Source: Somniosus microcephalus (Eukaryota). Taken from it: a DNA stretch of 64,000 bases. Both the position numbers and the translations under genes were made by a program. The stretch lies in contig CM126210.1 of the NCBI GenBank assembly GCA_052327205.1, positions 24,924,001 to 24,988,000 on the forward strand, given 5' to 3'. This document shows, piece by piece, positions 1,274 through 56,614 of this stretch (positions within the stretch are counted from its first letter, which is position 1; each line of letters begins with the position of its first letter). The notes below the pieces were generated by a model. That model had not been told where the DNA came from. It searched no databases and worked only from the letters and a program-made list of their open reading frames with translations.

Positions 1274-1608
1274 AAAAACCATGGTTTCTTAATACAATAT
1301 TGTAAGATTAATGGATCAAATCACATTTCAATGTTTTGAAGCAGACAGTGCTTGTTAATACAGTGCAAAGTTCATTTAATGCAAAACCACGGCAATTTAC
1401 TATTCAATATTAAAATAATCTGACATACTCCTAAATACCCTTATGAACAGAGGAGGGTGCAAGGATTTGAGTTATTAATTTTTCAGGTGTCTACATGCAG
1501 GGTAATGCCTTCAAAAAATTTTCAACATCTTGCAATCTATGTTTCACTGATATTTAAACAGATCTACAGTATATTAATCTCAGCTCTATCAATAAATCTA
1601 TTGGATTA

Positions 1609-1741
1609 CAAAAGCAAAATACTGCAGATGCTGGAAATCTGAAATAAAAACAGAAAATGCTGGAAAAACTCAGCAGGTCAGGCAGCATCTGTAGAGAGAA
1701 AAAGAGATTTAACGTTTCAGGTCGATGACCTTTCGTCAGAC
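1609..1741 (-). mobile_element. Penelope-like pLTR fragment with hammerhead core, flanked by 11-bp near-perfect duplication
   Basis: Family sequence gcaaaatactgcagatgctggaaatctgaaataaaaacagaaaatgctgg... is flanked by ctattggatta (1598-1608) and ctattagatta (1742-1752). Confidence 0.8.
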
Positions 1742-1879
1742 CTATTAGATTATATGCTGTCAAAGGACTTTGAAATACTAGGTTGAAAACAAAATAACTT
1801 CAGTGGAGCACTAAAGCATCTATGCATTTTTTAGGTAATTAATAAATGACTGCTATGACTGAAAAGTGCTGTTACTAAC

Positions 1880-2003
1880 TTGTCTTTCATTTCAAAGCGT
1901 CCATGTAACCACCTCTTCAGGAAAATAGCTTCCTCTGGAACTTCTTTCACATCTACACGCTCAAAGAAAATGTGTATCCTTGGACACTCCCTACACAAGA
2001 ATT
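1880..2003 (-). CDS. AGPAT5: AGPAT5 internal coding exon (probably exon 7), 124 bp, phase 1/2
   Basis: ttcacag|AATTCTTG...GACAA|gttagt translates to (E)FLCRECPRIHIFFERVDVKEVPEEAIFLKRWLHGRFEMKD, the acyltransferase C-terminal domain. It joins in frame with the 162-bp exon. Confidence 0.95.
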
Positions 2004-3008: not shown

Positions 3009-3090
3009 GAAATGGCAGGCGCGTAGCCCACGGTTTACCGTCCATTGAAATGAATGGATGAAAAATCATGGGCTATGTGCCTGCTATTTC
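3009..3090. repeat. 82-nt imperfect palindrome (hairpin MITE relic)
   Basis: Arms gaaatggcaggcgcgtagcccacggttt and aaatcatgggctatgtgcctgctatttc surround the centre ccattgaaatgaatgg. Confidence 0.75.
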
Positions 3091-3264
3091 TGGAGATGCA
3101 CTCCCTACAATGCCAGATCACAAAATCACCCCTATAGAAACACCACATATACTGAAACACCACATTTGTATACTTTGGATGGCAGTGGTTCTAATTTTTC
3201 ATGCATATTCATTGGTCTTCTGGGTTCTGTTTCCTGCAGTTTAGTGAGGCAAGCCAGATTCATT

Positions 3265-3487
3265 AATATAATAGCAAAATACTGCGGATGCTGGAAATCT
3301 GAAACAACAACAGAAAATGCTGGAAATACTCAGCAGGCCAGGCAGCATCCATGGAGAGAGAAACAGAGTTAACGTTTCAGGTCTGGGTTCTGACGAAGGG
3401 TCCCAGACCTGAAACGTTAACTCTGTTTGTTTCTCTCTCCACGGATGCTGCCTGGCCTGCTGAGTATTTCCAGCATTTTCTGTTGTT
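3265..3487. mobile_element. Fold-back Penelope-like element (inverted pLTR pair) with 14-bp TSD
   Basis: An inverted repeat of about 80 bp is centred on about 3395. A perfect flanking direct repeat aagccagattcatt sits at 3251-3264 and 3488-3501. Confidence 0.85.
3385..3423 (+). ncRNA. Minimal type I hammerhead ribozyme motif
   Basis: gggtt-CTGACGA-a-gggtc(cca)gacct-GAAACGTT-aactc. Both core boxes, stem II, a 5-bp stem I and a palindromic ACGT stem III are present. Activity is untested. Confidence 0.65.
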
Positions 3488-4814
3488 AAGCCAGATTCAT
3501 TGCCTCTTTGAGAATTGGCATGGTAATAATCACTTAAAACTGCTGTAAATGAGCATGCAAAAAGAAACAAATACCAAATAACAAATTTTACTGCAACGGA
3601 TTTTAAGCATTTCTCAAAGAATCTTGCGCAGTGGGAATATTGTAAAGTTAAAATGGATGACTTCCTTTATTATTGTCAATCTTATAGCAAGCAAATGGAT
3701 AGTAAAATTGAGACCCCCAAACTTGCTTGGAATAAACAGAGTTCAGTTTAAGGGTGGATATTTAAAAAGAAATACTTGCACATGATCTGGAACTCAAAAG
3801 TCACTCTCTCATGTAGTACTTGTGCCATTTGACTACACATTTATCGCACACCGCTATCTTAATATATTATGTTATAATTTGATGGGTAGTTAACAAGGCA
3901 GTTAACGCCATATTGGAAACCACAGCAATTTGCAATTTCTGTTACAGAATGTGACACAAGTGATGATGAGAAATGAAGCGAGGGGAAAGAATGGGAGAAG
4001 CAAAAACCCAGCAAGATAACAAAGTGCGTCATGGATTCACGAATACAGGTTTGCAAGTGAGTTGAACCAACAGAGTTGTGTGCTTGTCTTACTACAGTAT
4101 TAATTTGCACCACTTTTTGGATGATTAACTTAACCCAATAGATATGGTTAGGACAACTCCCTTATATGGATATATGCAGTTTCTCCCAGATGTTCAACTT
4201 TTTTAACGTGACACACGACCCACTTAAGCGGCACATGGAATATCAGCAGCGATTTGCTACAGTTTAAGTGAAATGAGCGTCCTCCGCGATTGTAAGAATT
4301 CTGCAGTTTGTCAGCTTTGGTCAGAGTGAAGGAAAACGGACCTAGACTTTCTAATGCCATTTGGCAGAGTTCAATGGGAGGTGGGAGAGTGATTCTTGGA
4401 AACCAGAAGGCAAAACAAAAATCTGCCAGACTCGCATTGGAATCCTGGCTAGTTGCAAGGATGACTGCAGTTTGCAGATGAAAAAAAAGTTTCGCAGTTC
4501 TGAAAGCATGAGGACCATCACACTTTTCCTCTTCCTCAGATCTCCCTGATACCCAATTAGAAATGCGTAGATATGCAGACATCACAACTTTCTGGGCATC
4601 ATGCTGGACTGAATGGGATAATTTGGTACACATCCTCGAGGTCCATGGACGCACCTGAATATTCTGCTTTGGCATTATCCTCTCATGACTAGTTCAAAAG
4701 CCTTTAGGGAAGCAAAAAGCAATAAGAATTACTAAACAATTAACTACCCCATTAATCTGCAATATATAACTATTTGATAAGTTTCATTATAAATTTACTT
4801 CATCAATTTATATT

Positions 4815-8059: not shown

Positions 8060-8970
8060 TCGTCTCCCAAATCCGTGCCCATCTTTCCTGCATCTCCATG
8101 CTTGAACCTCTCCAATCAGGTTTCTGCCCCTGCCACAGCACTAAAACGGTCGTAATCAGTCACAATTGACATCTGATGTGACTGTGGTGCATTATCCCTC
8201 AATCCGTTTGCTTCTCCAACGACCTTCCTCCATTGTTCAGCTGAGTGGGACTACCGCGTGGTAGTGGGCGGGAAGGGCTAAACCGGATAGCGCTCAACCT
8301 TGGCGTCCTATTTGACTGAGCTGAGCTTCCGGCCCCATATCCTCTCCAGCACAAAGACTGTCTACATCCACCTCTGTAATATCGCCAGACACCACCACCC
8401 CCCCACCCCCCCCCCAGTCCATCTGTTGCTGAAATCCTCATCCATGCTTTTGTTACCTCCAGATCGACTATTCCAACACGGTCCTGGCCAGCCTCCCATC
8501 TTCCACCCTCTATAAACTCAAGCTCATGCAAAACTCTGCTGCCCGTATCATTACTCTTACCAAATCCCATTCAGCCATTACTCTTGGCTCCTGGTCCACC
8601 AATGACTCAGTTTTAAAATTCTCATCCTCATGCTCAAATCCCTCCATGGCCTCGCTCCTACCTAACTCTAACCTCCTCCAGCCCTACGACCCTTGGAGAA
8701 CTCTGTGTTCCTCCAACTCTGGCCTCTTGTGCATCCCCCACTTTCTTCGCCCAATCATTGGCCCTCATGCCTTCAGCCGTTTAGGAATGGAATTCACTCA
8801 CTAAACCTCTCCACTGCTCTCTCCTCCTTTAAGACGCTTGTTAAAACCTACCTGTTTGACCTGTCCTAACATCTCTTCTTTTGGCTCAGTGTTAACTTTT
8901 GTCTGATTATGCTCCTGTGAAGCACCTCGGAGTACGTTAAAAGGTGTAATATAAATGCATGTTGTTGTTC
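8060..8970 (+). mobile_element. Decayed L2-type LINE 3' region
   Basis: QNSAARIIT..SH..IT motif and tail ctcctgtgaagcacct...atataaatgcatgttgttgtt. Shared with copies at 24470, 26170 and 48900. Confidence 0.75.
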
Positions 8971-9136
8971 TAAATCTCCGAGCTGGAGTTGGGGGTTGGG
9001 GGGGGGAAGAAAGAGGCGGACGGCACAATAATCAATCTGGTTTTCCAATCCCGACTGGTTATCCCTGCTGAAAAGCAAACATGCACGGTCAGCTAAAAAT
9101 AAAACTGGTCTCAGCTAGTATCGATGGTCAGATAGG

Positions 9137-12302: not shown

Positions 12303-12448
12303 AATATGAAAATGCTGGAAATACTCAGCAAGTCAGGCAGCATCTGTGGAGAGAGAAACAGAGTTAATGTTTCAGGTCGATGACCCTTCGCCAGAACTGG
12401 AAAAAGCTCGAGATCGAACATATTTCCAGCATTTTCTGTTTTTATTTG
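12303..12448 (-). mobile_element. Penelope-like pLTR insertion with short inverted tail and 14-bp TSD
   Basis: acttaagtgaataa is duplicated at 12289-12302 and 12449-12462. Mutated hammerhead at 12362-12398. Confidence 0.85.
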
Positions 12449-12564: not shown

Positions 12565-13076
12565 AAAAACAGAAAATGCTGGAAGCACTCAGCAGGTCAG
12601 GCAGCATCTATGGAGAGAGAAACAGAGTTAACGTTTCAGGTCAATGACTTGGTCAGATTTTTAAGCAAGTGCAGGGGCAGGGAAAGGGGGGAGGGGAGGA
12701 AAGAACAAAAGGGAAGGTCTGTGATAGGGTGGAAGTCAGGAGTGATTAAATGACAAATGGTTTGATGGCGCAAAGCAAGAGGAGATGGTAAAAGGACAAA
12801 GAAACAAAAGATGGGTCTAGAAGAGGTGTAAATGGGAATATCAGAATCATCAGCAATAGCTGCCGTCTGAAAAAACAGGGGCAGAGGTTATGGTCTGAAA
12901 CTGCTGAACTCAAAGTTGAGTCCAGAAGGCTGTAAAGTGCCTAATCCAAAGATGAGGTGCTGCTCCTCGAGCTTACGTTGAGCTTCGTTGGAACAGTGTA
13001 AGTGGCCGAGGACAGAGTGGGAGTGGAGCGGAGAATTAAAGTAACAGGCGACCGGAAGCTCAGGTCATGCTTGCAG
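12565..13076 (-). mobile_element. Penelope-like element 3' fragment (GIY-YIG C-terminus plus pLTR) with 15-bp TSD
   Basis: Minus strand about 13060-12894 encodes LPVACYFNSPLHSHSVLGHLHCSNEAQRKLEEQHLIFGLGTLQPSGLNFEF, the typical PLE endonuclease C-terminus. Flanks are actgttcattaaaat / actgtttattaaaat. Confidence 0.85.
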
Positions 13077-17400: not shown

Positions 17401-20033
17401 ATGCAAAATTGTGTTGTTAAAATGTAATGTAATTTAAGGTTTTGTTATTTACTGTAATTTATATTTCACTGAAGGACCTTCTACACATTGTTGCTCTGTT
17501 TTGATCTGTGATGTACAGCTGATTTGTAATGCTCGTGAAACACCTCTCCCATACAAAAAACATTTCCCGCATAAACATTACCCATGAAAGACAGTGCACA
17601 GTCAGTTCAAAGAACAACTGAGCTTAAATAAATATTCCGAGAAATAAAAAGTGGGGAACGGTTGGTGGGTCATGAAAACCTCTCTTTGGAGAAACTGGGT
17701 GGTACTCTCCAAGTCATACCTCTGGATCAATTCTTAAAACAGTACCATTTTGGAGGCTGTGCAAATACATATCTAAAGGGAGAAAACCCAAAAGGAAATA
17801 AATAAATGTATCACCTGTCACAGAAATTGGTAACAGGCACTTTCCAGCGCAGATTTCCAGGTGATACAAGACAACAGCCTCAGAGGTACATTCTCCTTTT
17901 CTGCTCCATGCTGTTATTTGTAAACTGAAATATTCTAATTACCTTGACCAAGTTAATTAACATTATAAAGATTAATCACAGCCATTCCATTAGAATGTTT
18001 ATGATAGGATGCAGAGGTTAGTTACCTATTTAGAAAATAATTAATCCAATTTAGTTTCTTGGTGCTATTGTAAAGCTGAAATCGATTTGTCATCTGCTGT
18101 GTAGTAGCTACCAACATGCCTAATTCATATTGTAAGTGGCATATATGATGGTGGGCATTTAAAAAAATGCAAATATTGCAGTCATTAACATTAACAGATG
18201 TCTGCAAAATCCACTTGGTGATACTGCCATCAAAATGACCATTCCACCTTTAAAGATGCAGGCAGACAATATCCAATTCCATATGGAATTGAACTTTGAT
18301 TAAGTATTGGGTGGAAACTAGCTGAAACTTAAGGATTTTAATGAAATCGATGATTTTTTTTTCAAGGATTTCTTTGTATAAATTAGTTTCAACTGCTCCA
18401 ATGAGTCCTTAGGGGTTAGTCCTGCAGATAATGTTTAGTGTGAGTGATCTGTTCACCAAGTGCAAGCCAGTTTTGTGTAATCTTATGAACTTTAAGAATT
18501 ACCTGCAACTCATGCCAATATTCAAAGTATACTTCCTGACGATGTACTGATTGGAAACAATTCCCTGACATACAATGACATAACCATCATACACAAATGC
18601 ATTTATTTCTTTTCCCGGGGTGACTATTACAACGCGACTGGGATGATTGCCAATTTCCCGACAAATATTTTCTCATCTTCTAGGAAGCCAAATAGCATTT
18701 TTTCCTACCATGTCTGACCATGAGCACAGTGCAGCAGGCCCAGAAGGCAATGTGACTGACTGCCATCAATCTTTATCAAAGACCAGGAAAGCTAGCATGT
18801 GAAAAACCCAGAAATGAAGGTTGAACATTTTGGAAAGCATATGAAGACAGCAGGGATGGATTAAGCATAGGGAAAACGAAGATATGAATAAACCAGTGAT
18901 GGGAGCAGAGCTACAGTGTAAGAAGCAAAGAGTCATGGAAAAAAAAGTTATAAATAGAGAAGTAGAAAGATTCTGGGGACCCGAGACACTGGAAGGGAGA
19001 AGATGGTGGACCTTCAAAGCATGGATGAGATTGAGATGTAGACCAGTCTCCTTGTTAACACAACCGGCTTTTTCCACAGGATCTTTTGATCTAATTCTGA
19101 CAGGCTAACATGAAATCAAGTTAAGCTTAAATTCTGGCAATGAAAAAACCTGGAAAGCTCCACGTCTGAAGATCAAGGTGAAATTTTGTTGGTGCTGGTT
19201 GGTCTGATAATCAGATTGATTATTGAAACAGAAAATGCCAGAAGGACATAGCATCCATCAAGAGAAAAGACAAGTATATGATGTTTTGGATTTGTACCCG
19301 TCTTCAGAACAAACTGAACTGCGGTGTATTTCCAGCATTTCCAATTTTTATTTCAGATTTACAGCATTTGGAGTTTTTCCTTCATTATGTTCTTTCATAT
19401 TTGATTCTTATTAAATTATATGTATTTAACAGCTTTTACCCATGTTAGATGACGTGCCATTCATTACGTAACTGCGAAAATCAATTCTACCATTTTTTTT
19501 TTTTTTTTTTAAAAAGTGAAATTTAATGTAGAATTATCTGTGTGCGCGCACACACACGTGAGTGCATGCGTGCAGTGTGTGTTCTTTTTCCCCTTAGTGT
19601 ACAAGGGACTGACGAGAACTGTTGCAGTTGCACAAGGAAAATTAGACCTGGTCAATTAAAACCAGTCTTGGGAGCTTCGCAAAGCTCATTCACCCTTTGT
19701 TGTAAAGTAGGAATAGCTGCTGATTAATGCCATCTTTTATTTGAAGTGCCGTTGAGTGGAAAAACTAAACTTTCTAGAACTGAAGACTGAAGTCATCCAG
19801 TATGGCTCCACCAGAAATCCTGGATTCTGATTTCATACCACTTCCTAGCTACTCGCTCAGAGTAAACCTGATGATGCACAATCTTTGTGTCATGTTTGGC
19901 TGTGAGCTGAGCTACAAATTCCTACACTACTCATCACCAAGACTGCTATTTCCACCACTAGAATGTCACCTACCTCTGTCCACACATCACTGCTGAAAAC
20001 ATTATACACATTGTCTTCACTTTAAGACTCTAC

Positions 20034-23039: not shown

Positions 23040-24135
23040 TGAAACTCAGCGTAAACTTGACAAACAGCAGCTCATTTTTCTAGTAGGTACTTTGCAACCC
23101 TTTCGTCTTAACAGTAGCTATAACAAATTAGGACCCTAACCAAAACTCCCATTTTGGGGGGGGGGGGGGGGGGGTGGGTGCGCGCAGGGGGTAGGTTGGT
23201 ACCTGGAGTGGGCACTCACCATCGGAACACAACTGGTAGGGTAGTCTGTGCCCTTGCTGGCAAACTGCTTCCCCCATCCCCATCTTCGACCAGACTCCCG
23301 AGCCGCTGGAGCCTGCCGCTGGTTTTTCATGCTTCCCTTTCTACCTATTTCCCCTTTAGTTTTTCACACTTTGTCTTGTGACAAAAATATATATTTTTTT
23401 TAAAAACCTTGTCTGATGATGTCATTCACTGTTATTCAAGCGTTGAGTTTGCAGAAAAAGAGCTTCAATTGCTTATTTATAAATAAACCGATAGTGACAC
23501 TAACCGAAAGGCAACTGCATAGTGTCCTCTCAAACTGAGGAAGTACCACCAATATAATTAAACATAAAATCTAATTAAACTAAAATACACTCATAATTTA
23601 AATCGTAATATTATCGGTGTCGATCAGACACTATGCCTTGCAGTGCCCACCGGTCGCGGAAAGCCCCAAGCATACCGGTGGACACCGCATGTTCCCTTTC
23701 CAAGGCCACCCTGGCATGGACTAACCTGTGAAAGAGCGGCAGGCAGCAGCCAGAGTAACCCTCCCCACGAGCCAGGCTCATCCTGGAGCTGTGAATGGCT
23801 GTCCTCGCCAGTCCCAGGAGCTAACCCACAAGAAGGTCCTCCGACTTGCCTGCCCCCCTCTTTGTCTTGCATGCGTCTTTTCCTTCTTTGATTTCTCTCA
23901 TTATGCCTCCTGATGACATCACATTTGCCATTCAATCACCTCCTGTCCTCTACCCAAACACTTTACCTGTGGGTACATGCGTTTTGCTTCCTTTCCCTCA
24001 TTGTGTTCCTATTTAAATGCTGCTCGTTGTAGTAGCTCCTAGTCCTGAGCAAGAGCCAATGGCTCGACATGTTAACTGGACTTTTTTTTAAATGGACGCT
24101 GCCTGGCCTGCTGAGTGTTTCCAGCTTTTTTTTCT
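23040..24135 (+). mobile_element. Old Penelope-like 3' fragment interrupted by an unclassified insert (about 23136-23860)
   Basis: 23041 onward encodes ETQRKLDKQQLIFLVGTLQPFRLN (GIY-YIG C-terminus). Degenerate hammerhead/pLTR at 24041-24130. Confidence 0.6.
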
Positions 24136-41464: not shown

Positions 41465-41626
41465 CAGGCATAGATGGAGCTGTTGCCCGGTGCCCAGTGC
41501 TTTTTATAGTTCCTTCGTATGCAACAGTGATATCGTACACGGCATCTAGGTGACCTCTCATTGCGTTAATGGCTACTCGCGTTGCCTTCACACGTGGTGA
41601 CATTGTATGTCTTAGTTCTGGCAGCT
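41465..41626 (-). CDS. AGPAT5: AGPAT5 internal coding exon (probably exon 6), 162 bp, phase 1/1
   Basis: tctttcag|AGCTGCCA...ATGCCTG|gtaagt translates to (E)LPELRHTMSPRVKATRVAINAMRGHLDAVYDITVAYEGTIKSTGHRATAPSMP, with the PRxKA and LDAVYDIT motifs. It lies inside ORF 41442..41675. Confidence 0.96.
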
Positions 41627-46079: not shown

Positions 46080-48658
46080 AATTAGGGATAGCATAAGATC
46101 CAAGGAGAGGACATTCAATTTGGCCAGAAAAAGCAGCAAACCTGAGGATTGGGAGCAGTTAAGGATTCAGCAAAGGAGGACAAAGGGATTAATTAAGAGG
46201 GGGAAAATAGATTGAGAGAGTAAGCTTGCAGGGAACATAAAAACTGACTGTAAAAGCGTCTATAGATATGTGAAGAGAAAGAGATTGGTGAAGTCAAGTG
46301 TAGGTCCCTTGCAGTCAGAATCAGGGGAATTTATAATGGGGAACAAAGAAATGGCAGCCCAATTAAATACATATTTTGGTTCTGTCTTCACAAAGGAGGA
46401 CACAAATAACCTCCCAGAGATGTCAGGGAACATAGGGGGAGAAATTGGGTGAGTAGCGCCACCTGTTAGCGCCTAAAGAGGCAGTCAGTGGCTGTAGCGC
46501 CACTGGCTGCGTCTCCCGCGATATTCAGTAGGGGCGCTAATGGTGGCGTTAGGCATTTGCGCTGTGCCGCCACCGATGACGTCATCGGTGTGCGCAGCGC
46601 CCCATTCGTGCCCCGTTCGCGATATTTGGTAGCGAACGGCGCAGTTGCGCCGTTCGCTATCCGTGCCCGGTTCACGGGGCCTTACTGTGCCGGCAGCGGC
46701 GCAAGTTAAGGTGGAGGCGCAGGGCGGCCGCTTTTTCGGCGGCCGCCTGCCAGCACCCCCCGCCCCCCACCCCCCACGGCATTGCCGGCTGTTTCCCGAG
46801 CGCCCGGCACTTCTCCTTGGTGCCGGGCTCATTTGCCGGCACTCGCGAGTGGGGATCGCGTTGTTGCAGGCACCTCCCCCTTAACAGTGGGAGGAAGGCC
46901 TGCAGTACCGCAGCGTGTGGCGCTGCGATAATCAGTTTCAGCGCCCTAAGAGGGACGCGGAGCGCCTCGAGCCTCGCCCCGTGTCCCTCGAGGGGCACTG
47001 AAACTGAATTTCTGGCGATCGGTATCACTCCGATCGCTGCGCTAAATCCTGTGCTCAGTCGACTTTTGCGCCACTTTGGCGCCCCAACCCAATTTCTAGG
47101 CCATAGTGTCTAATGAGGGAGGAATTGAATATTTGTAGGGAAATGGTGTTAGGGAAATTGACGGGATTGAAGGCCGATAAATCCCCAGGGCCTGATGATC
47201 TACATCCTAGGCTACTTAAGGAAGTGGCCCTAGAAATAGTAGATGCATTGCTGGTCATCTTCCAAAATTCTATAGACTCTGGAACAGTTGCCATAGATTG
47301 GAGGATAGCTAATGTAACCCCACTATTTAAAAAGGGTGGTAGAGAAAAAACAGGGAATTATAGACCGGTAAGCCTGACATCGGTAGTGGGGAAAATGCTA
47401 GAGTCCATTATAAAAGATGTAACAGCAGAGCACTTGGAAAACAGTGACAGGATCGGACAAAGTCAACATGGATTTACAAAAGGTAAATCATGCTTGACTA
47501 ATCTACTGGAATTTTTTGAGGATGTAACTGGTAGAATAGATAAGGGAGAACCAGTGGATGTGGTGTATTTGGACTTTCAGAAGGCTTTCGATAAGGTCCC
47601 GCATAAGAGATTAGTGTGTAAAGTTAAAGCACATGGGATTGGGGGTAAGGTACTGTCTTGGATAGAGAACTGGTTGGCAGACAGGAAGCAAAGAGTTGGA
47701 ATAAACGGATCTTTTTCTGAGTGGCAGGCAGTAACCAGTGGGGTACCTCAGGGATCGGTGCTAGGACCCCAGCTATTCACAAGATATATAAATGATGATC
47801 TAGACAAGGGAACTAGATGTAATATCTCCAAGTTTGCAGACGACACAAAGCTGTGTGGGCATGGGTGCTGTGAGGAGGATGCAGAGAAACTCCAGTATGA
47901 TTCGGACAGGTTGGGTGATTATACTGCATTTGCCATGCATCTGCCCAATGTGGATAAATGCGAGGTGGCAAAAACAGGAAGACACATTATCTGAACGGCA
48001 ATAGATTGGGAAAACTGTCCTTGTGCACCAGTTGCTGAAGGTAAGCATGCAGGTGCAGCAGGCAGTTAAGAAGGCAAATGGTATGTTGGCCTTCATAGCG
48101 AGAGGATTCGAGTACAGGAGCAAGGATGTCTTGCTGCAATTGTACAGGGCCTTGGTGAGACCACACCTTGAGTACTGTGTGCAGTTTTGGTCACCTTATC
48201 TGAGGAAGGATGTTCTTGCCATGGAGAGAGTGCAGCAAAGATTCACCAGACTGACAGTTTAGAAGAATGAGAGGGGATTTCATTGAAACTTATAAAATTC
48301 TAACAGGACTAGACACAGGAAGGATGTTCCCGATGGCGGGGGAGTCCAGAACCAGGGGTCACAGTCGAAGGATAAGGGGTAAGCCAATTAGGACAGAGAT
48401 GAGGAGGAATTTCTTCACCCAGAGAGTGGTGAACCTATGGAATTCTCTGCCACACAGGGCAGTTGAGGCCAATTCATTAAATATATTCAAGAAGGAGTTG
48501 GATATATTTCTTGAGGCTAAAGGGATCAAGGGATATGGGGGGAAAGCGGGGACAGGGTACTGAATTTGGATGATCAGCCATGATCTCATTTAAAATGGCG
48601 GAGCGGGCTTGAGGGGCCGAATGGCCTACTCCTGCTCCTATCTTCTATGTTTCTATGT
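46080..48658 (+). mobile_element. CR1 LINE ORF2 fragment (reverse transcriptase), disrupted
   Basis: ORF 47113..47994 has [33 protein letters not shown] and KFADD. It has frameshifts and deletions, an intact 3' tail, and a MITE insertion. Confidence 0.97.
46435..47102. mobile_element. Young CpG-rich MITE (Harbinger-like) inserted in CR1
   Basis: Termini gggggagaaattgggt / acccaatttctaggcc with ATA duplicated (46432-34, 47103-05). CR1 sequence resumes across the junction. Confidence 0.9.
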
Positions 48659-49529: not shown

Positions 49530-50960
49530 AGAATCATAGAATGGTTACAGCACAGTAAGGGCCATTCGGCCCGTCGAGCCCATTCTGGCTCTCTGCAAGA
49601 GCAATTTTTTCCCCCTTCAGGTACTTAGCCAATTCCCGTTTGAAAGCCACTATTGAACCTGCCTCCACCACCCTTTCAGGCAGTGCATTCCAGGTCATAC
49701 CACTCGCTACGTAAAAAAGCTGTTCCTCATGTCGCCTTTGGATCTTTCGCCAATCACCTTAAATCTGCGTCCTCTGGTTCTCAACCCTTTTTCTCTGTCT
49801 ACTCTGTCGAGACCCCTCATGATTATGAACACCTCCATCAAATCTCCCCTCAATCTTCTCTGCTCGAAGGAGAACAACCCCAGCTTCTCCAGTCTATCCA
49901 CGTAACTGTAATTCCTCATGCCTGGAAACATTCTTGTAAATCTTTTCTGCACCCTCTCAAGCCTTCACATCCTTCTTAAAGTGTGGTGCCCAGAATTGGA
50001 TACAAGACTCCAGTTGTGGCCGAACCAGTGTTTTATAAAAGGTTCATCATAACTTCCTTGCTTTTGTACTCTCTGCCTCTATTTATGAAGCCCAGGATCC
50101 CGTATGCTTTCTTAAACTGCTTTCTCAACCTGCCCTGCCACCTTCAATGATTTGTGCACATATACCCCCAGGTCTCTCTGTTCATGCACCCCCTTTAGAA
50201 TTGTACCCTAGTCTATATTGCCTCTCCTTATTCTTCCTATCAAATTGTGTCACTTCACACTTCTGTGTTAAGTTTCATCTGCCATGTATCCGCCCATGCC
50301 ACCAGCCTGTCTATGTCCTTTTAAAGTCTATCACTAACCTTCTCACTGTTCACTATATTTCCAAGTTTTGTGTCATCTGCAGATTTTGAAATTGTGCCCT
50401 GTCCAAGTCATTAATATATATCAAGAAAAGCAGTGGTCCTAGTACCGACCCCTGGGGAACACCGCTGTATACCTTCCTCCAGTCTGAAAAACAACCATTC
50501 ACCACTACTCTCTGTTTCCTGTCACTTAGCCAATTTCGTATCCGTGCTGCCACTGTCCCTTTTATTCCATGGGCTTCAACTTTGCTGGCAAGCCTAATAT
50601 GTGACACTTTATCAAATGCCTTTTGGAAGTCCATGTACATCACATCAACCGCATTGCCCTCATCAACCCTCTCTGTTACCTCATCAAAATATTCAATCAA
50701 GTTAGTTAAACACGATTTGCCTTTAACAAATCTGTGCTGGCTTCCCTTAATTAATCCACACTTGTCCAAGTGGCTGTTAATTTTGTCCCGGATTGTCGTT
50801 TCTAAAAGCTTTCCCACCACTGAGGTTAAACTGACGGGCCTGTAGTTGCTGGGTTTATCCTTACACCCTTTTTTGAACAATGGTGTAACATTTGCAATTC
50901 TCCAGTCCTCTGGCACCCCCCCCCCCCGTATCCAAGGAGGATTGGAAGATTATGGCCAGT
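49530..50960 (-). mobile_element. CR1 LINE ORF2 fragment
   Basis: ORFs 50353..50916 ([16 protein letters not shown]...[10 protein letters not shown]) and 49707..49952, plus the tail. Confidence 0.97.
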
Positions 50961-53001: not shown

Positions 53002-53410
53002 TAGCAAAATACTGCGGATGCTGGAAATCCGAAATAACAACAGAAAATGCTGGAAAAACTCAGCAGGCCAGGCAACATCCGTGGAGAGAAAATAGAGTCA
53101 ACGTTTCGAGTCAAACCCTTCGTCAAGACTGGAAAGGCACAGGAAATGAAATAGATTGAGAGGCCAGGCTGGGAGAGAACAAAAGAGAAGTGAAGAGACA
53201 TTAAGAGGTATTCAAAACAAGACGAGATGGTGATAGATGGAGACAAAAGACAGCTCTAGATTAGGTGTGAAATGCGCTGGCAGAATGAGAGGCAGCTGCC
53301 ATGTGGGAGAGAGAAAAGGGGGGGGGGGGGGGGGGGGGAGTAGGGCCAAAACAAAGGTGTGGATAAAAAATAAGTAAAAATGTAATGGGGGCCGAGGTGA
53401 TGATCTCTTG
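53002..53410 (-). mobile_element. Penelope-like pLTR insertion with 11-bp TSD
   Basis: cgattgtccaa is duplicated at 52991-53001 and 53411-53421. Hammerhead variant at 53096-53130. Confidence 0.85.
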
Positions 53411-53654: not shown

Positions 53655-54553
53655 CTGGAGAGAAAAAAGAAAAGATGTTGAAATTTGCTCATTTTGAGAT
53701 TGACTATTTTTAGGCTGGTCTTACAGCTATCTTAAAAACATACCGCTAGTAGCTATTGGTTGAACAGTTAGCTTTTCAAGCCTCACAACTGAAGCATTAA
53801 TTCCAACTGTAATGGAAAGTCTTAAGTAATCGGTCTGGGCCAGGCCCATAGAAGTGATGTGACTTGCGATTAAGCACTGCCGAAGGGGGTTAGCCTCACC
53901 AGTCTAAAACATTGGTTTTCAAACTTGGGTCCCTGGACCTTAATGAGTCTGGAAAAGGTACCAAAGGGTCAGATTTTTTATTTTGCACTTGACCTACCAG
54001 CATGTTACTAATGTTACTGTATACTAATAAAAATAATTTTTTTTGGCAATAATGGCACTATTTTCCCTTGGGGAGTTGTCGCTATGTTTTCGGAAGTTGG
54101 GACAAGAGCTCACAAGGGTGTGCAAAACTTTGTAGTAGGTCTGCAGAAGCATGCCAAAGTTTGCAGGGGATCCCCCACAGATTGCAGTTTGTAAACTACA
54201 GGCACATCTGTCCCTAATCAAAGAATTGTTGACGTCTATTTCAGTGGTGCCAGCTAAAAGAAAGACTTGCATTTTCATAGCATCAAGTGCGTGTGACATA
54301 CATGTTAAGTAGACAAATGATGGTTAGGAGGACACAGGAAGCCTATTTTGTGGCTGAGGGCGGGGGAAGGCAGCGAGAAGTATAATCTCAATTATTTTGC
54401 CCATTCTGCCCAAGTTCAGCAAATTAGATGGTCAGTAATTTGAAACAATAACCCCTGTACGATGAAGTGTTTCTACCAAATACAATGATATCCATCAAAT
54501 GTAATGAATGAATGTTGGTTTCAAATGACACAATCAACTTATGAATAAAGACA

Positions 54554-54695
54554 GAAAATGCTGGAAATACTCAGCAGGTCAGGCAGCATCTAACAGAGTT
54601 TCTCTCTCTCCACAGATGCTGCCTGACCTGCTGAGTATTTCCAGCATTTTCAGTTTTTATTTCAGATTTCCAGCATCCGCGGTATTTTGCTTTTG
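54554..54695. mobile_element. Fold-back Penelope-like mini-insertion with 14-bp TSD
   Basis: tatgaataaagaca is duplicated at 54540-54553 and 54696-54709. Internal inverted pLTR arms. Confidence 0.85.
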
Positions 54696-56614
54696 TATGA
54701 ATAAAGACACCTTGTGTGAGATAGAACGTAAATTAACTTTTTAAACATTTAAAGCTTAATCCTTGGTAAATTCTTCTTCAGGTTCACAGCATTAGTTATA
54801 ATTGTTACGGCAGTCAAGGATATGTTGCACAGCTCCAATTCTCTAAGAGAAGGCAAACTGATCTACCAAACTTCAAGCACTACGACTGAGCAGCCCAACT
54901 TCAGGACAAGCCTCAGCCACTAAGAGTGTCTGGCTTAGTATGAAGTCTAATGCTGTCTACCATCCCCACAACATACACTACCCTTCACAAGCTCCAGAAA
55001 AAAGTAGCAGGGGTCTGGAAACACCCGCCTGTATCACTAATCTGGGCCACCAGTGAAGGGGGGGGGGGGGTGGTGAGTAGAAGAGGGAGGACAGCGTGAG
55101 TGAGACTGAAAAAGATGAGGCCTGTGCCATAGTGAAGATCCCAATGACCTCCCATTGAGGATAGCAATGCCAGCAGCTTCAAGGCTTCACACACAAAGGG
55201 CATCTCTGAGATGGACAAGCTGCTTAGTCACCAATATATCATGTCCTTCCAGCAGTTAGTGGAAAAATGTCATACACTCAACATGCCTATATTTTGTTAC
55301 CTGCCAGTCTAACACTTCCTCCAAAATCCCAATGTGCCACATAAAACACAATGTTAGAACTGAGTATTTGCAAAGGTACTGGCACATCTTATGCCTCCAG
55401 TAAATAGTGTTCATCTGGACATCAGACAAGATGGAAAACTTAAACAATCCTTGGGAGCACTAACTAAGTTGTCCACTCTCAGGAGAGGACTAGAACCTAG
55501 TAACAAGTTCTGATGAAAGATACGTATCCAAAACTTTAACCTGTATTTTCACGTTACAGATGCTGGAATACATAGGATTATAAACAAGATGCTGACTGTC
55601 CTAAGGTAATGCACAAGTTGCACATAGAGCTGAGAAAACACCAAGAGGTATGGGACGCCTTTCTCTGGGCCTGCCTCCCACTTACACCAAGCCTCCACAG
55701 CTGAAGCAACCCACTGGCTGATGAGAGACACTCCCCAGTGCCCACCCGCCGCTGCTACAACCCAATATGCAATAAAACCATACCCTCGCCCTTCGGCAAG
55801 CCAACAACCTCCCAGACTGCCAACAAGCCCCTGTACGGATAGTCCGGATTCTAGATGCACAGTCTGGACACGTAAGCATCACGTCACCTGTATTATAGCA
55901 CGTGTTCTATCAAAGCATAGCCTGAGAGTGTGTCCAAGTTTCTTGCATGAAACAATAAAGAAAATGTTGGGGGGAAAACAATTTTGACGCAGCTGTGAAA
56001 CCTCAGAAGCAGGCTTTAAACATTACTTGAGGAAGACAAGCTTCGGAGAACATGGTATACCAATTGAAATACTACAGCAATTCCATCGTGCGAGAGAGCC
56101 ATGGGAAAAAGTCATCTGGCAGCAACTATGATGCTGCAAATAGACTATCAAGAGACTTTCTGTTTTATCCATTTTATAAATAACACTTTTGCTAGACTTA
56201 TTTCATATAATGAGCCTTCCCTTTTATTAATGACAATCAGCATTCCAGTAGATGCAGCTCTTTCAGCAACAGTGTGGCAATTAGAGTTCAATAGAATAAT
56301 GACCCCGCTGTGCATTAGTGCACAACGTTTAAACAATGTACATAATACGTATTTCCAGTTGAACCCTCCAGATTAACTTTCAGTAAACTTAGTGATTAGG
56401 TCTCAATTTTGTATTCTTCAAATGAGGAGCAACTATTTGGAGCATCCTTATTGACAATGGTCACAACACCTTTTGAGGAAAAAGTGAAAACAAAACACAC
56501 ACACATGGGAGCGATTATCAAGCTGTACCCCTTATGGTTTAGGACTTTATTTGAACCCTTACTAAGATTACAGCCTGGTAATTACTCTCGGATGTACATA
56601 GTATTAAAAATCAT

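Follow-up and report, generated by a model that had tools for sequence, protein, structure and literature searches.

The flagged insertion and its host gene

The window, the whole stretch of 64,000 nucleotides of Somniosus microcephalus DNA that we analysed, crosses a gene on the minus strand that encodes an acyltransferase (Pfam Acyltransf_C, E = 3.1e-09) and that we take to be AGPAT5-like. In addition to the exon listed in Table 1, further exons of this gene were located near positions 41537, 53639 and 61331, all on the minus strand, and the last exon lies beyond the left edge of the window. The Pfam scan took in 300 of the 376 ORFs of the window, and a Pfam search for exons of the acyltransferase catalytic domain did not recover the present locus. 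A match to MBDa at 8804-9031 was dropped, since it was below the cut-off and had no exon-like features. The same gene contains reverse transcriptase fragments of other retroelements at 47107-47991 (plus strand) and 50356-50949 (minus strand), and an imperfect hairpin at 3009-3090, with weak microRNA-model matches below the gathering scores, is probably part of another repeat. The copies of the repeat described below sit in the introns of the acyltransferase gene, the position that an earlier note on this DNA had proposed for them.

The insertion flagged in that note occupies positions 3265-3487 and is flanked by exact 14-bp target-site duplications. Its inverted arm, which carries the long end, is followed by a direct arm with the short end that begins within stem I of the hammerhead. 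The motif at 3386-3422 is a real minimal type I hammerhead: the boxes that define the class, CUGANGA and GAAA with an NUH triplet, are present, and every element quoted by the earlier note (CTGACGA, the following A, stem II, the GAAA box, the ACGT palindrome and GUU) was found where it had been placed; the minimal type I architecture claimed for 3385-3423 is supported. The extra A after A9 is described as typical of Penelope minimal hammerheads (PMC4209133). From the hammerhead numbering of the sequence, the cut is predicted after position 3418. The length of stem I had to be revised. Four of the five pairs proposed correspond to the family stem (AGTT/AACT) and the fifth comes from the inversion junction; because the family stem I is AGTT/AACT and the 'gg' belongs to the inverted arm, the gggtt at 3385 is partly junction, and just the last three letters of the 5' strand at 3386-3389 agree with the family. 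The difference between ggtt and agtt, which had been read as covariation, is a one-sided effect of this junction.

A loose core pattern gave four matches in the window versus 1.03 expected (1 of 100 shuffles reached four), and two of the four are copies of the flagged repeat. The search of the window with Rfam covariance models returned no hammerhead family up to E = 5. Its microRNA-like matches, of which the ones at 3349-3444 and 54551-54654 coincide with the inverted repeats, stayed below their gathering thresholds.

Table 1. Positions of the flagged insertion, its hammerhead parts, the host exon and related copies in the window
Feature	Position	Strand	Remarks
Host exon	1880..2003	-	AG and GT ends
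Left target-site duplication, 14 bp	3251..3264	.	Exact repeat of 3488-3501
Inverted 5'-truncated arm	3265..3387	-	Stem II 3' strand through long 'tail' end
Stem I 5' strand	3386..3389	+	GGTT here, AGTT in family
Core box CUGACGA (C3-A9) and extra A	3390..3397	+	CTGACGA 3390-3396, extra A 3397
Stem II GGGUC/GACCU, loop CCA	3398..3410	+	
GAAA box, loopless palindromic stem III ACGU and GUU triplet	3411..3418	+	GAAACGTT
Stem I 3' strand AACU	3419..3422	+	
Start codon and first codons of element ORF	3445..3487	+	Stops at short 3' end point
Right target-site duplication	3488..3501	.	
Second copy	1607..1743	-	Core intact, stem I lost by 5' truncation, sense to host gene
Copy with family stem I	12362..12398	-	Broken core (CTGGCGA, GAAACATT)
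Old diverged copy	24041..24077	+	Stem II GAGCC/GGCTC, decayed core
Copy, U3.G8, stem I AGTC/GACT	53096..53130	-	Sense to host gene

Predicted folding of the flagged copy and state of the other copies in the window

The inverted arm of the flagged insertion lacks the CUGANGA box and base-pairs with the direct arm in the predicted fold. Together, the arms form a long predicted hairpin (-181 kcal/mol, z = -23) that engages the ribozyme's 3' half. With flanks of 60-130 nt, imposing the hammerhead fold on this copy cost about 34 kcal/mol, versus 1-7 kcal/mol in eight native copies, and the predicted probabilities of its hammerhead stems in their own context are at most 0.01. Judged from these models, the flagged copy almost certainly cannot adopt the hammerhead fold and is almost certainly inactive, and the locus is an ordinary dead insertion. 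Moreover, since the host gene is encoded on the minus strand, the hammerhead at 3385 is antisense to the pre-mRNA. A second inverted-arm insertion of the same element was observed at 54551-54701; the hammerhead is absent from it, and it forms a long hairpin with a sub-threshold microRNA match. Both inverted-arm hairpins could be double-stranded RNA substrates within introns.

BLAST of the flagged locus against the window recovered 12 pieces of the repeat. Three other copies had been offered as evidence of covariation. The one at 53096-53130 indeed carries a true two-sided change (agtc/gact) that marks a whole subfamily; it lies on the minus strand, has U at position 3 and belongs to a subfamily whose usual core is U3-A8. 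The copy at 12362-12398 has the family stem I (agtt/aact) as proposed; however, it is on the minus strand, its core is broken and its contrast with ggtt does not stand. At 24053-24065, the gagcc/ggctc stem II was confirmed, in a copy with a decayed core and a C.A mismatch as the stem I closing pair; among the nine loci listed, this stem II has one relative, in locus L140, with GAGCC/GGCTT. L140, L133 and the window copies at 24041-24077, 19249-19311 and 55504-55565 belong to hammerhead families that are older and have diverged further, and their stem II sequences differ.

The earlier note had suggested that the family spreads self-cleaving motifs through host introns. Six copies that are sense to the host gene reach the core region: those at 379-451 and 19249-19311 are decayed, 12586-12666 lacks the 5' core, 12362-12398 has the broken core, 1710-1743 has lost stem I, and 53096-53130, with its U3.G8 core, is the only one that retains both stems. 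These observations, together with the antisense and sequestered state of the flagged copy, do not bear out that suggestion. Self-cleavage of dispersed copies inside host pre-mRNA, with an effect on host genes, would fit the tens of thousands of copies with both stems, the intronic location of the window copies and the finding of family sequence in RNA reads. Against it, in addition to the state of the sense copies, single minimal motifs have been reported not to cleave in vitro (PMC4209133), and close neighbours are mostly on opposite strands (among the matches listed, read by eye). We therefore consider such an effect on host genes very unlikely.

Identification of the parent element

Sequence comparison identifies the flagged repeat as the truncated end of an autonomous, Neptune-like Penelope-like element with reverse transcriptase (RT) and GIY-YIG domains. 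This assignment follows from the linked RT/GIY-YIG frame, the same-strand tandem hammerheads and the two end points that define the tail. Close relatives of the repeat lie about 190 nt past the stop codon of a reading frame that matches RT and GIY-YIG. The Pfam matches on this ORF (E = 9e-06 and 0.002, respectively) are both under the curated cut-offs, and DKG, YIDD and GIY-YIG-type motifs were identified directly in it; the element thus has the single ORF with RT and C-terminal GIY-YIG that is expected of an EN+ Penelope-like element. The Penelope origin proposed in the earlier note is thus borne out by this ORF; the repeat is, however, the end of the autonomous element itself instead of a separate Penelope-derived family.

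A same-strand hammerhead was found directly before the ORF in 10 of the 25 loci with the N-terminal coding part. Units with the organisation pLTR-ORF-pLTR have two same-strand hammerheads about 3.0-3.2 kb apart; such pairs, 3.0-3.1 kb apart, were listed for eight of nine units chosen for their upstream hammerhead (the ninth, L098, has its second hammerhead in a separate listing) and for all five pairs chosen by spacing. Locus L092 contains an open frame of 912 codons whose ATG, located 22 nt after the predicted cut, is the same ATG found at 3445 in the flagged copy, and an ATG 21-22 nt after the predicted cut is conserved in all main subfamilies. In L270, a tandem unit, both ends carry U3.G8 and the open frame runs to about 955 codons; the frame of L273, a U3-A8 tandem, is broken. 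The 3' ends of the copies cluster at +66-72 and +101-108 after the predicted cut. Partial tandems (pLTR), inverted 5'-truncated copies and a tail of 30-40 bp, the features by which Penelope-like elements are recognised (PMC8557442), were all observed. The linker between RT and endonuclease, CKRRRCNTC, has the form CX4CxxC and falls within the CX2-5CxxC pattern common to Neptune and Nematis (PMC8557442); at the sequence level, it points to one of these two clades.

We also considered as start codon the ATG inside the CTGATGA box, which is in frame in one subfamily only; because it is absent from the other subfamilies, the downstream ATG was preferred. In the CTGATGA subfamily (L092 1844-1897; L040, L043, L045, L053 and L060), the box ATG is in frame 17 codons upstream of the conserved ATG. 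Tandem arrays with units of about 61 bp and 55 bp adjoin Penelope insertions in L031 (on the left of the element, in its own orientation) and L034 (1-4276).

Copy number and covariation of the hammerhead

In the 6.45 Gb of genome searched, the family pattern gave 21,879 matches versus 10 for the reversed control, and a variable pattern, which left open positions 3 and 8, the pair that closes stem I and some of stem II, gave 53,546 copies versus none for its control, about one per 120 kb. This confirms, by one pattern, the abundance attributed to the repeat. Among these copies the core 3-8 pair is U3-A8 in 7,480, U3.G8 in 13,547 and C3.A8 in 2,571 (exact counts), and, by subtraction, C3-G8 in the remaining 29,948. 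Read by eye, the 100 listed rows with C3.A8 belong mostly to old families and have A8 after a pyrimidine, as predicted by CpG decay. In 100 copies listed from a search that allowed mismatches, the stem I closing pair was U-A in 76, C-G in 12, U.G in 10 and C.A in 2 (counted by eye).

Among 60 distinct variants, 95.9% of the cells pair and 24 cells are changed on both sides, values not reached in any of 500 shuffles; the number of pairs with a two-sided change is three, which is not above the shuffles (310 of 500). The rows are related and were picked by patterns with some stem letters fixed, and they include loci fetched for C3.A8, so that the shuffle result is not a probability. Pair 10.1-11.1 is G.U, G-C or A-U in all 60 variants and the next pair is G-C, G.U or A-U, and loop II and N7 vary freely among copies. 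The palindromic stem III ACGT is present in 55 of the 60 variants, as counted with patterns that partly fix these letters. The stem covariation that the earlier note had described is real between subfamilies, in stems I and II, through few independent steps.

An ordered series of core pairs

A tree was built from 53 copies with the hammerhead columns removed (of 199 candidates, 68 were long enough and were then thinned) and rooted at the midpoint; of two earlier coding-region trees, the first had no U3-A8 rows and the second had short ones. The subfamilies form a ladder that starts with old C3-G8 families followed by C3-G8 with a stem I U.G, continues with U3-A8 and a stem I C-G (support 100/98 for U3-A8 plus U3.G8), and ends with U3-A8 with GUC and a stem I U.G (one row) and U3.G8 with a stem I U-A (100/100). 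The stem I closing pair along the ladder is thus U-A, U.G, C-G, U.G and U-A, and the changes along the tree pass through G.U. Two independent origins of U3-A8 from U3.G8 were not supported, since the U3.G8 clade is nested inside U3-A8; monophyly of the U3-A8 rows was not rejected (p-AU = 0.126). U3.G8 also occurs in the older-family locus L140, so that more than one origin of the wobble is possible. Median downstream identity was lowest in the old subfamily (0.88); it was 0.97 in U3-A8, 0.98 in the flagged subfamily and 0.98-1.0 in the U3.G8 groups, the sets for U3-A8 and the flagged subfamily being partly selected for likeness. The U3.G8 clade is a young one, with an intact tandem element among its members.

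The apparent covariation might also have come about without structural selection, through shared descent of a few source lineages and decay of their CpG sites. In favour of this, every change is a transition, G8 became A8 at CpG in older families, and there are just a handful of independent steps. On the other hand, the five or six steps off Watson-Crick pairing all went to G.U and none to A.C, an outcome that a null model of transitions alone would give, by rough estimate, about once in 32 to 64 cases, and the stem I closing pair is rarely mismatched (C.A in 2 of the 100 copies listed) although the patterns allowed mismatches. The hammerhead stretch, being upstream of the ATG, is free of coding constraint, which also counts against mere descent; we regard that explanation as improbable. 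Selection on pairing most likely acted in the source elements and not in the inserted copies. A more far-reaching proposal, that the lineage is a time-ordered natural mutagenesis in which every subfamily change, whether in stem I, stem II or the core 3-8 pair, kept a pair by way of G.U, and in which the young autonomous clade then settled on U3.G8 and made about 13,500 copies, we put forward tentatively, aware that it may well be wrong.

Predicted cleavage and proposed spread of the hammerheads

We propose that the two hammerheads of one tandem transcript pair via the ACGU palindrome and that cleavage, probably assisted by the protein of the element, would be slow and occur after GUH, as published work on other elements suggests. 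The 5' end produced by such a cut would lie 21-22 nt upstream of the conserved AUG, at a spacing observed in the copies, and the cut would set the 5' end of the mRNA or release a unit. Reverse transcription probably has two start points, some 70 and 105 nt beyond the cut, and takes mostly uncut RNA as its template, so that the hammerheads are scattered as passengers; the flagged copy at 3385 is probably one of them. Taken together, a Neptune-like Penelope hammerhead with slow tandem cleavage and passenger copies, the flagged one being inverted and antisense, is an account that we hold with considerable confidence.

This account has to be set against the wobble at 3-8 in a large young clade and against weak predicted pairing in monomers: the probability of stem I in every native copy modelled is at most 0.29 with 5-nt flanks and at most 0.09 with longer flanks. 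In published assays, monomers did not cleave and dimers showed low activity (PMC4209133), and one of nine Xenopus dimers is reported as active (bioRxiv 10.64898/2026.07.22.740005). No peak of 5' truncation was detected at the cut, which weighs against efficient cleavage: among 86 incidental copies (of 309 found, after exclusion of search centres, edges and long loci), none starts exactly there, three start within 2 nt and 69 run past. RNA reads over the flagged locus come mostly from other copies, and among the 21 places listed, of 54, there was no pile-up at 3418/3419. At window position 3434, in run X12, 155 RNA reads of a relative (TTG loop, GUC, GACT stem I strand) cross its GUC; the variant that they carry shows that RNA of a further subfamily is present as well, from one strand or the other.

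The lack of a truncation peak would also be expected if the fold were retained as a binding or folding signal for the protein of the element or for the start of translation, cleavage being marginal or irrelevant. The U3.G8 clade, with 13,547 copies and an intact tandem element, is in line with such a role, as are the hammerhead mutants with no effect on insertion in vitro of PAc, the Poseidon element of Anolis carolinensis (PMC11167929), and the spread of Naiad elements that have no canonical hammerheads (PMC8557442). However, the 3-8 pair, which is Watson-Crick in the tertiary-stabilised core according to PMC3884650, was changed on both sides to U-A in 7,480 copies, and the C.A mismatch is almost confined to old families, at CpG. 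A signal role is possible, and we judge it the less probable reading.

Relation to known hammerheads

The class is already in print, as the minimal Penelope hammerheads of Cervera and de la Peña 2014 (PMC4209133), which are described from Xena, Poseidon and Neptune elements of fish, coelacanth and Xenopus; several reviews deal with the field (PMC6155905, PMC6765202, PMC7229834, PMC3884650). The copies found here share with the hammerheads of PMC4209133 the type I topology, a loopless palindromic stem III, a 4-bp stem I and the extra base between 9 and 10.1, as well as the location in the pLTR, the thousands of solo copies and the several subfamilies with compensatory changes; in contrast, stem II is short here (4-5 bp). 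Our single pattern gave 53,546 copies, versus 4,000 in coelacanth and 9,000 in Xenopus (PMC4209133), by different search methods. The U3-A8 core variant also occurs in Schistosoma Cercyon, with about 1,300 hits (PMC4209133), and natural U3-A8 is known from other hammerheads (PMC3088659). A large autonomous U3.G8 clade is present here, whereas the parts of PMC4209133 that we consulted make no mention of one, and shark terms are absent from its supplement file 2. Our literature search, most subscription papers and Repbase being outside its coverage, yielded no shark Penelope hammerhead family, no fixed U3.G8 clade and no kinetic data for U3.G8 hammerheads.

As in PAc, the hammerhead lies at the pLTR-ORF junction and two 3' end points define the tail; the two end-point clusters resemble the two initiation sites of reverse transcription in PAc (PMC11167929). 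In PAc, the templates are mostly uncut, and cleavage there depends on help from the protein and is not needed for insertion in vitro (Frangieh et al. 2024, PMC11167929). Two differences were noted: the PAc cut is 26 nt inside the ORF (PMC11167929), whereas here the AUG is 21-22 nt after the predicted cut, and PAc belongs to the Poseidon clade, whereas the linker of the ORF described here is of the CX4CxxC type known from Neptune and Nematis. Non-LTR retrozymes likewise carry pLTR-derived type I hammerheads that have spread through vertebrate genomes (PMC7229834), and they are reported in one chondrichthyan (bioRxiv 10.64898/2026.07.22.740005). Retrozymes are short non-coding tandem repeats, in contrast to the dispersed truncated ends of a coding element described here; an identity with them was rejected, since the units examined are coding and about 3.1 kb long.

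Significance

The part worth following is the ordered series of core pairs and not the flagged locus. Penelope hammerheads are conserved, yet they cleave weakly in vitro, and in the sole reconstituted system insertion does not depend on them. Intact elements with three 3-8 core states are present in this genome, in a near-identical background and on an ordered tree, and offer a ready-made comparison of cleavage rate with spreading success. If the wobble slows the cut, Penelope elements would have been selected for a slow, protein-gated ribozyme; if the proposal is true, a slow cut would set the 5' end of the mRNA 21-22 nt before the start codon and leave most of the RNA uncut for reverse transcription. 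Matched intact elements with C-G, U-A and U.G would make the role of the hammerhead in Penelope directly testable.
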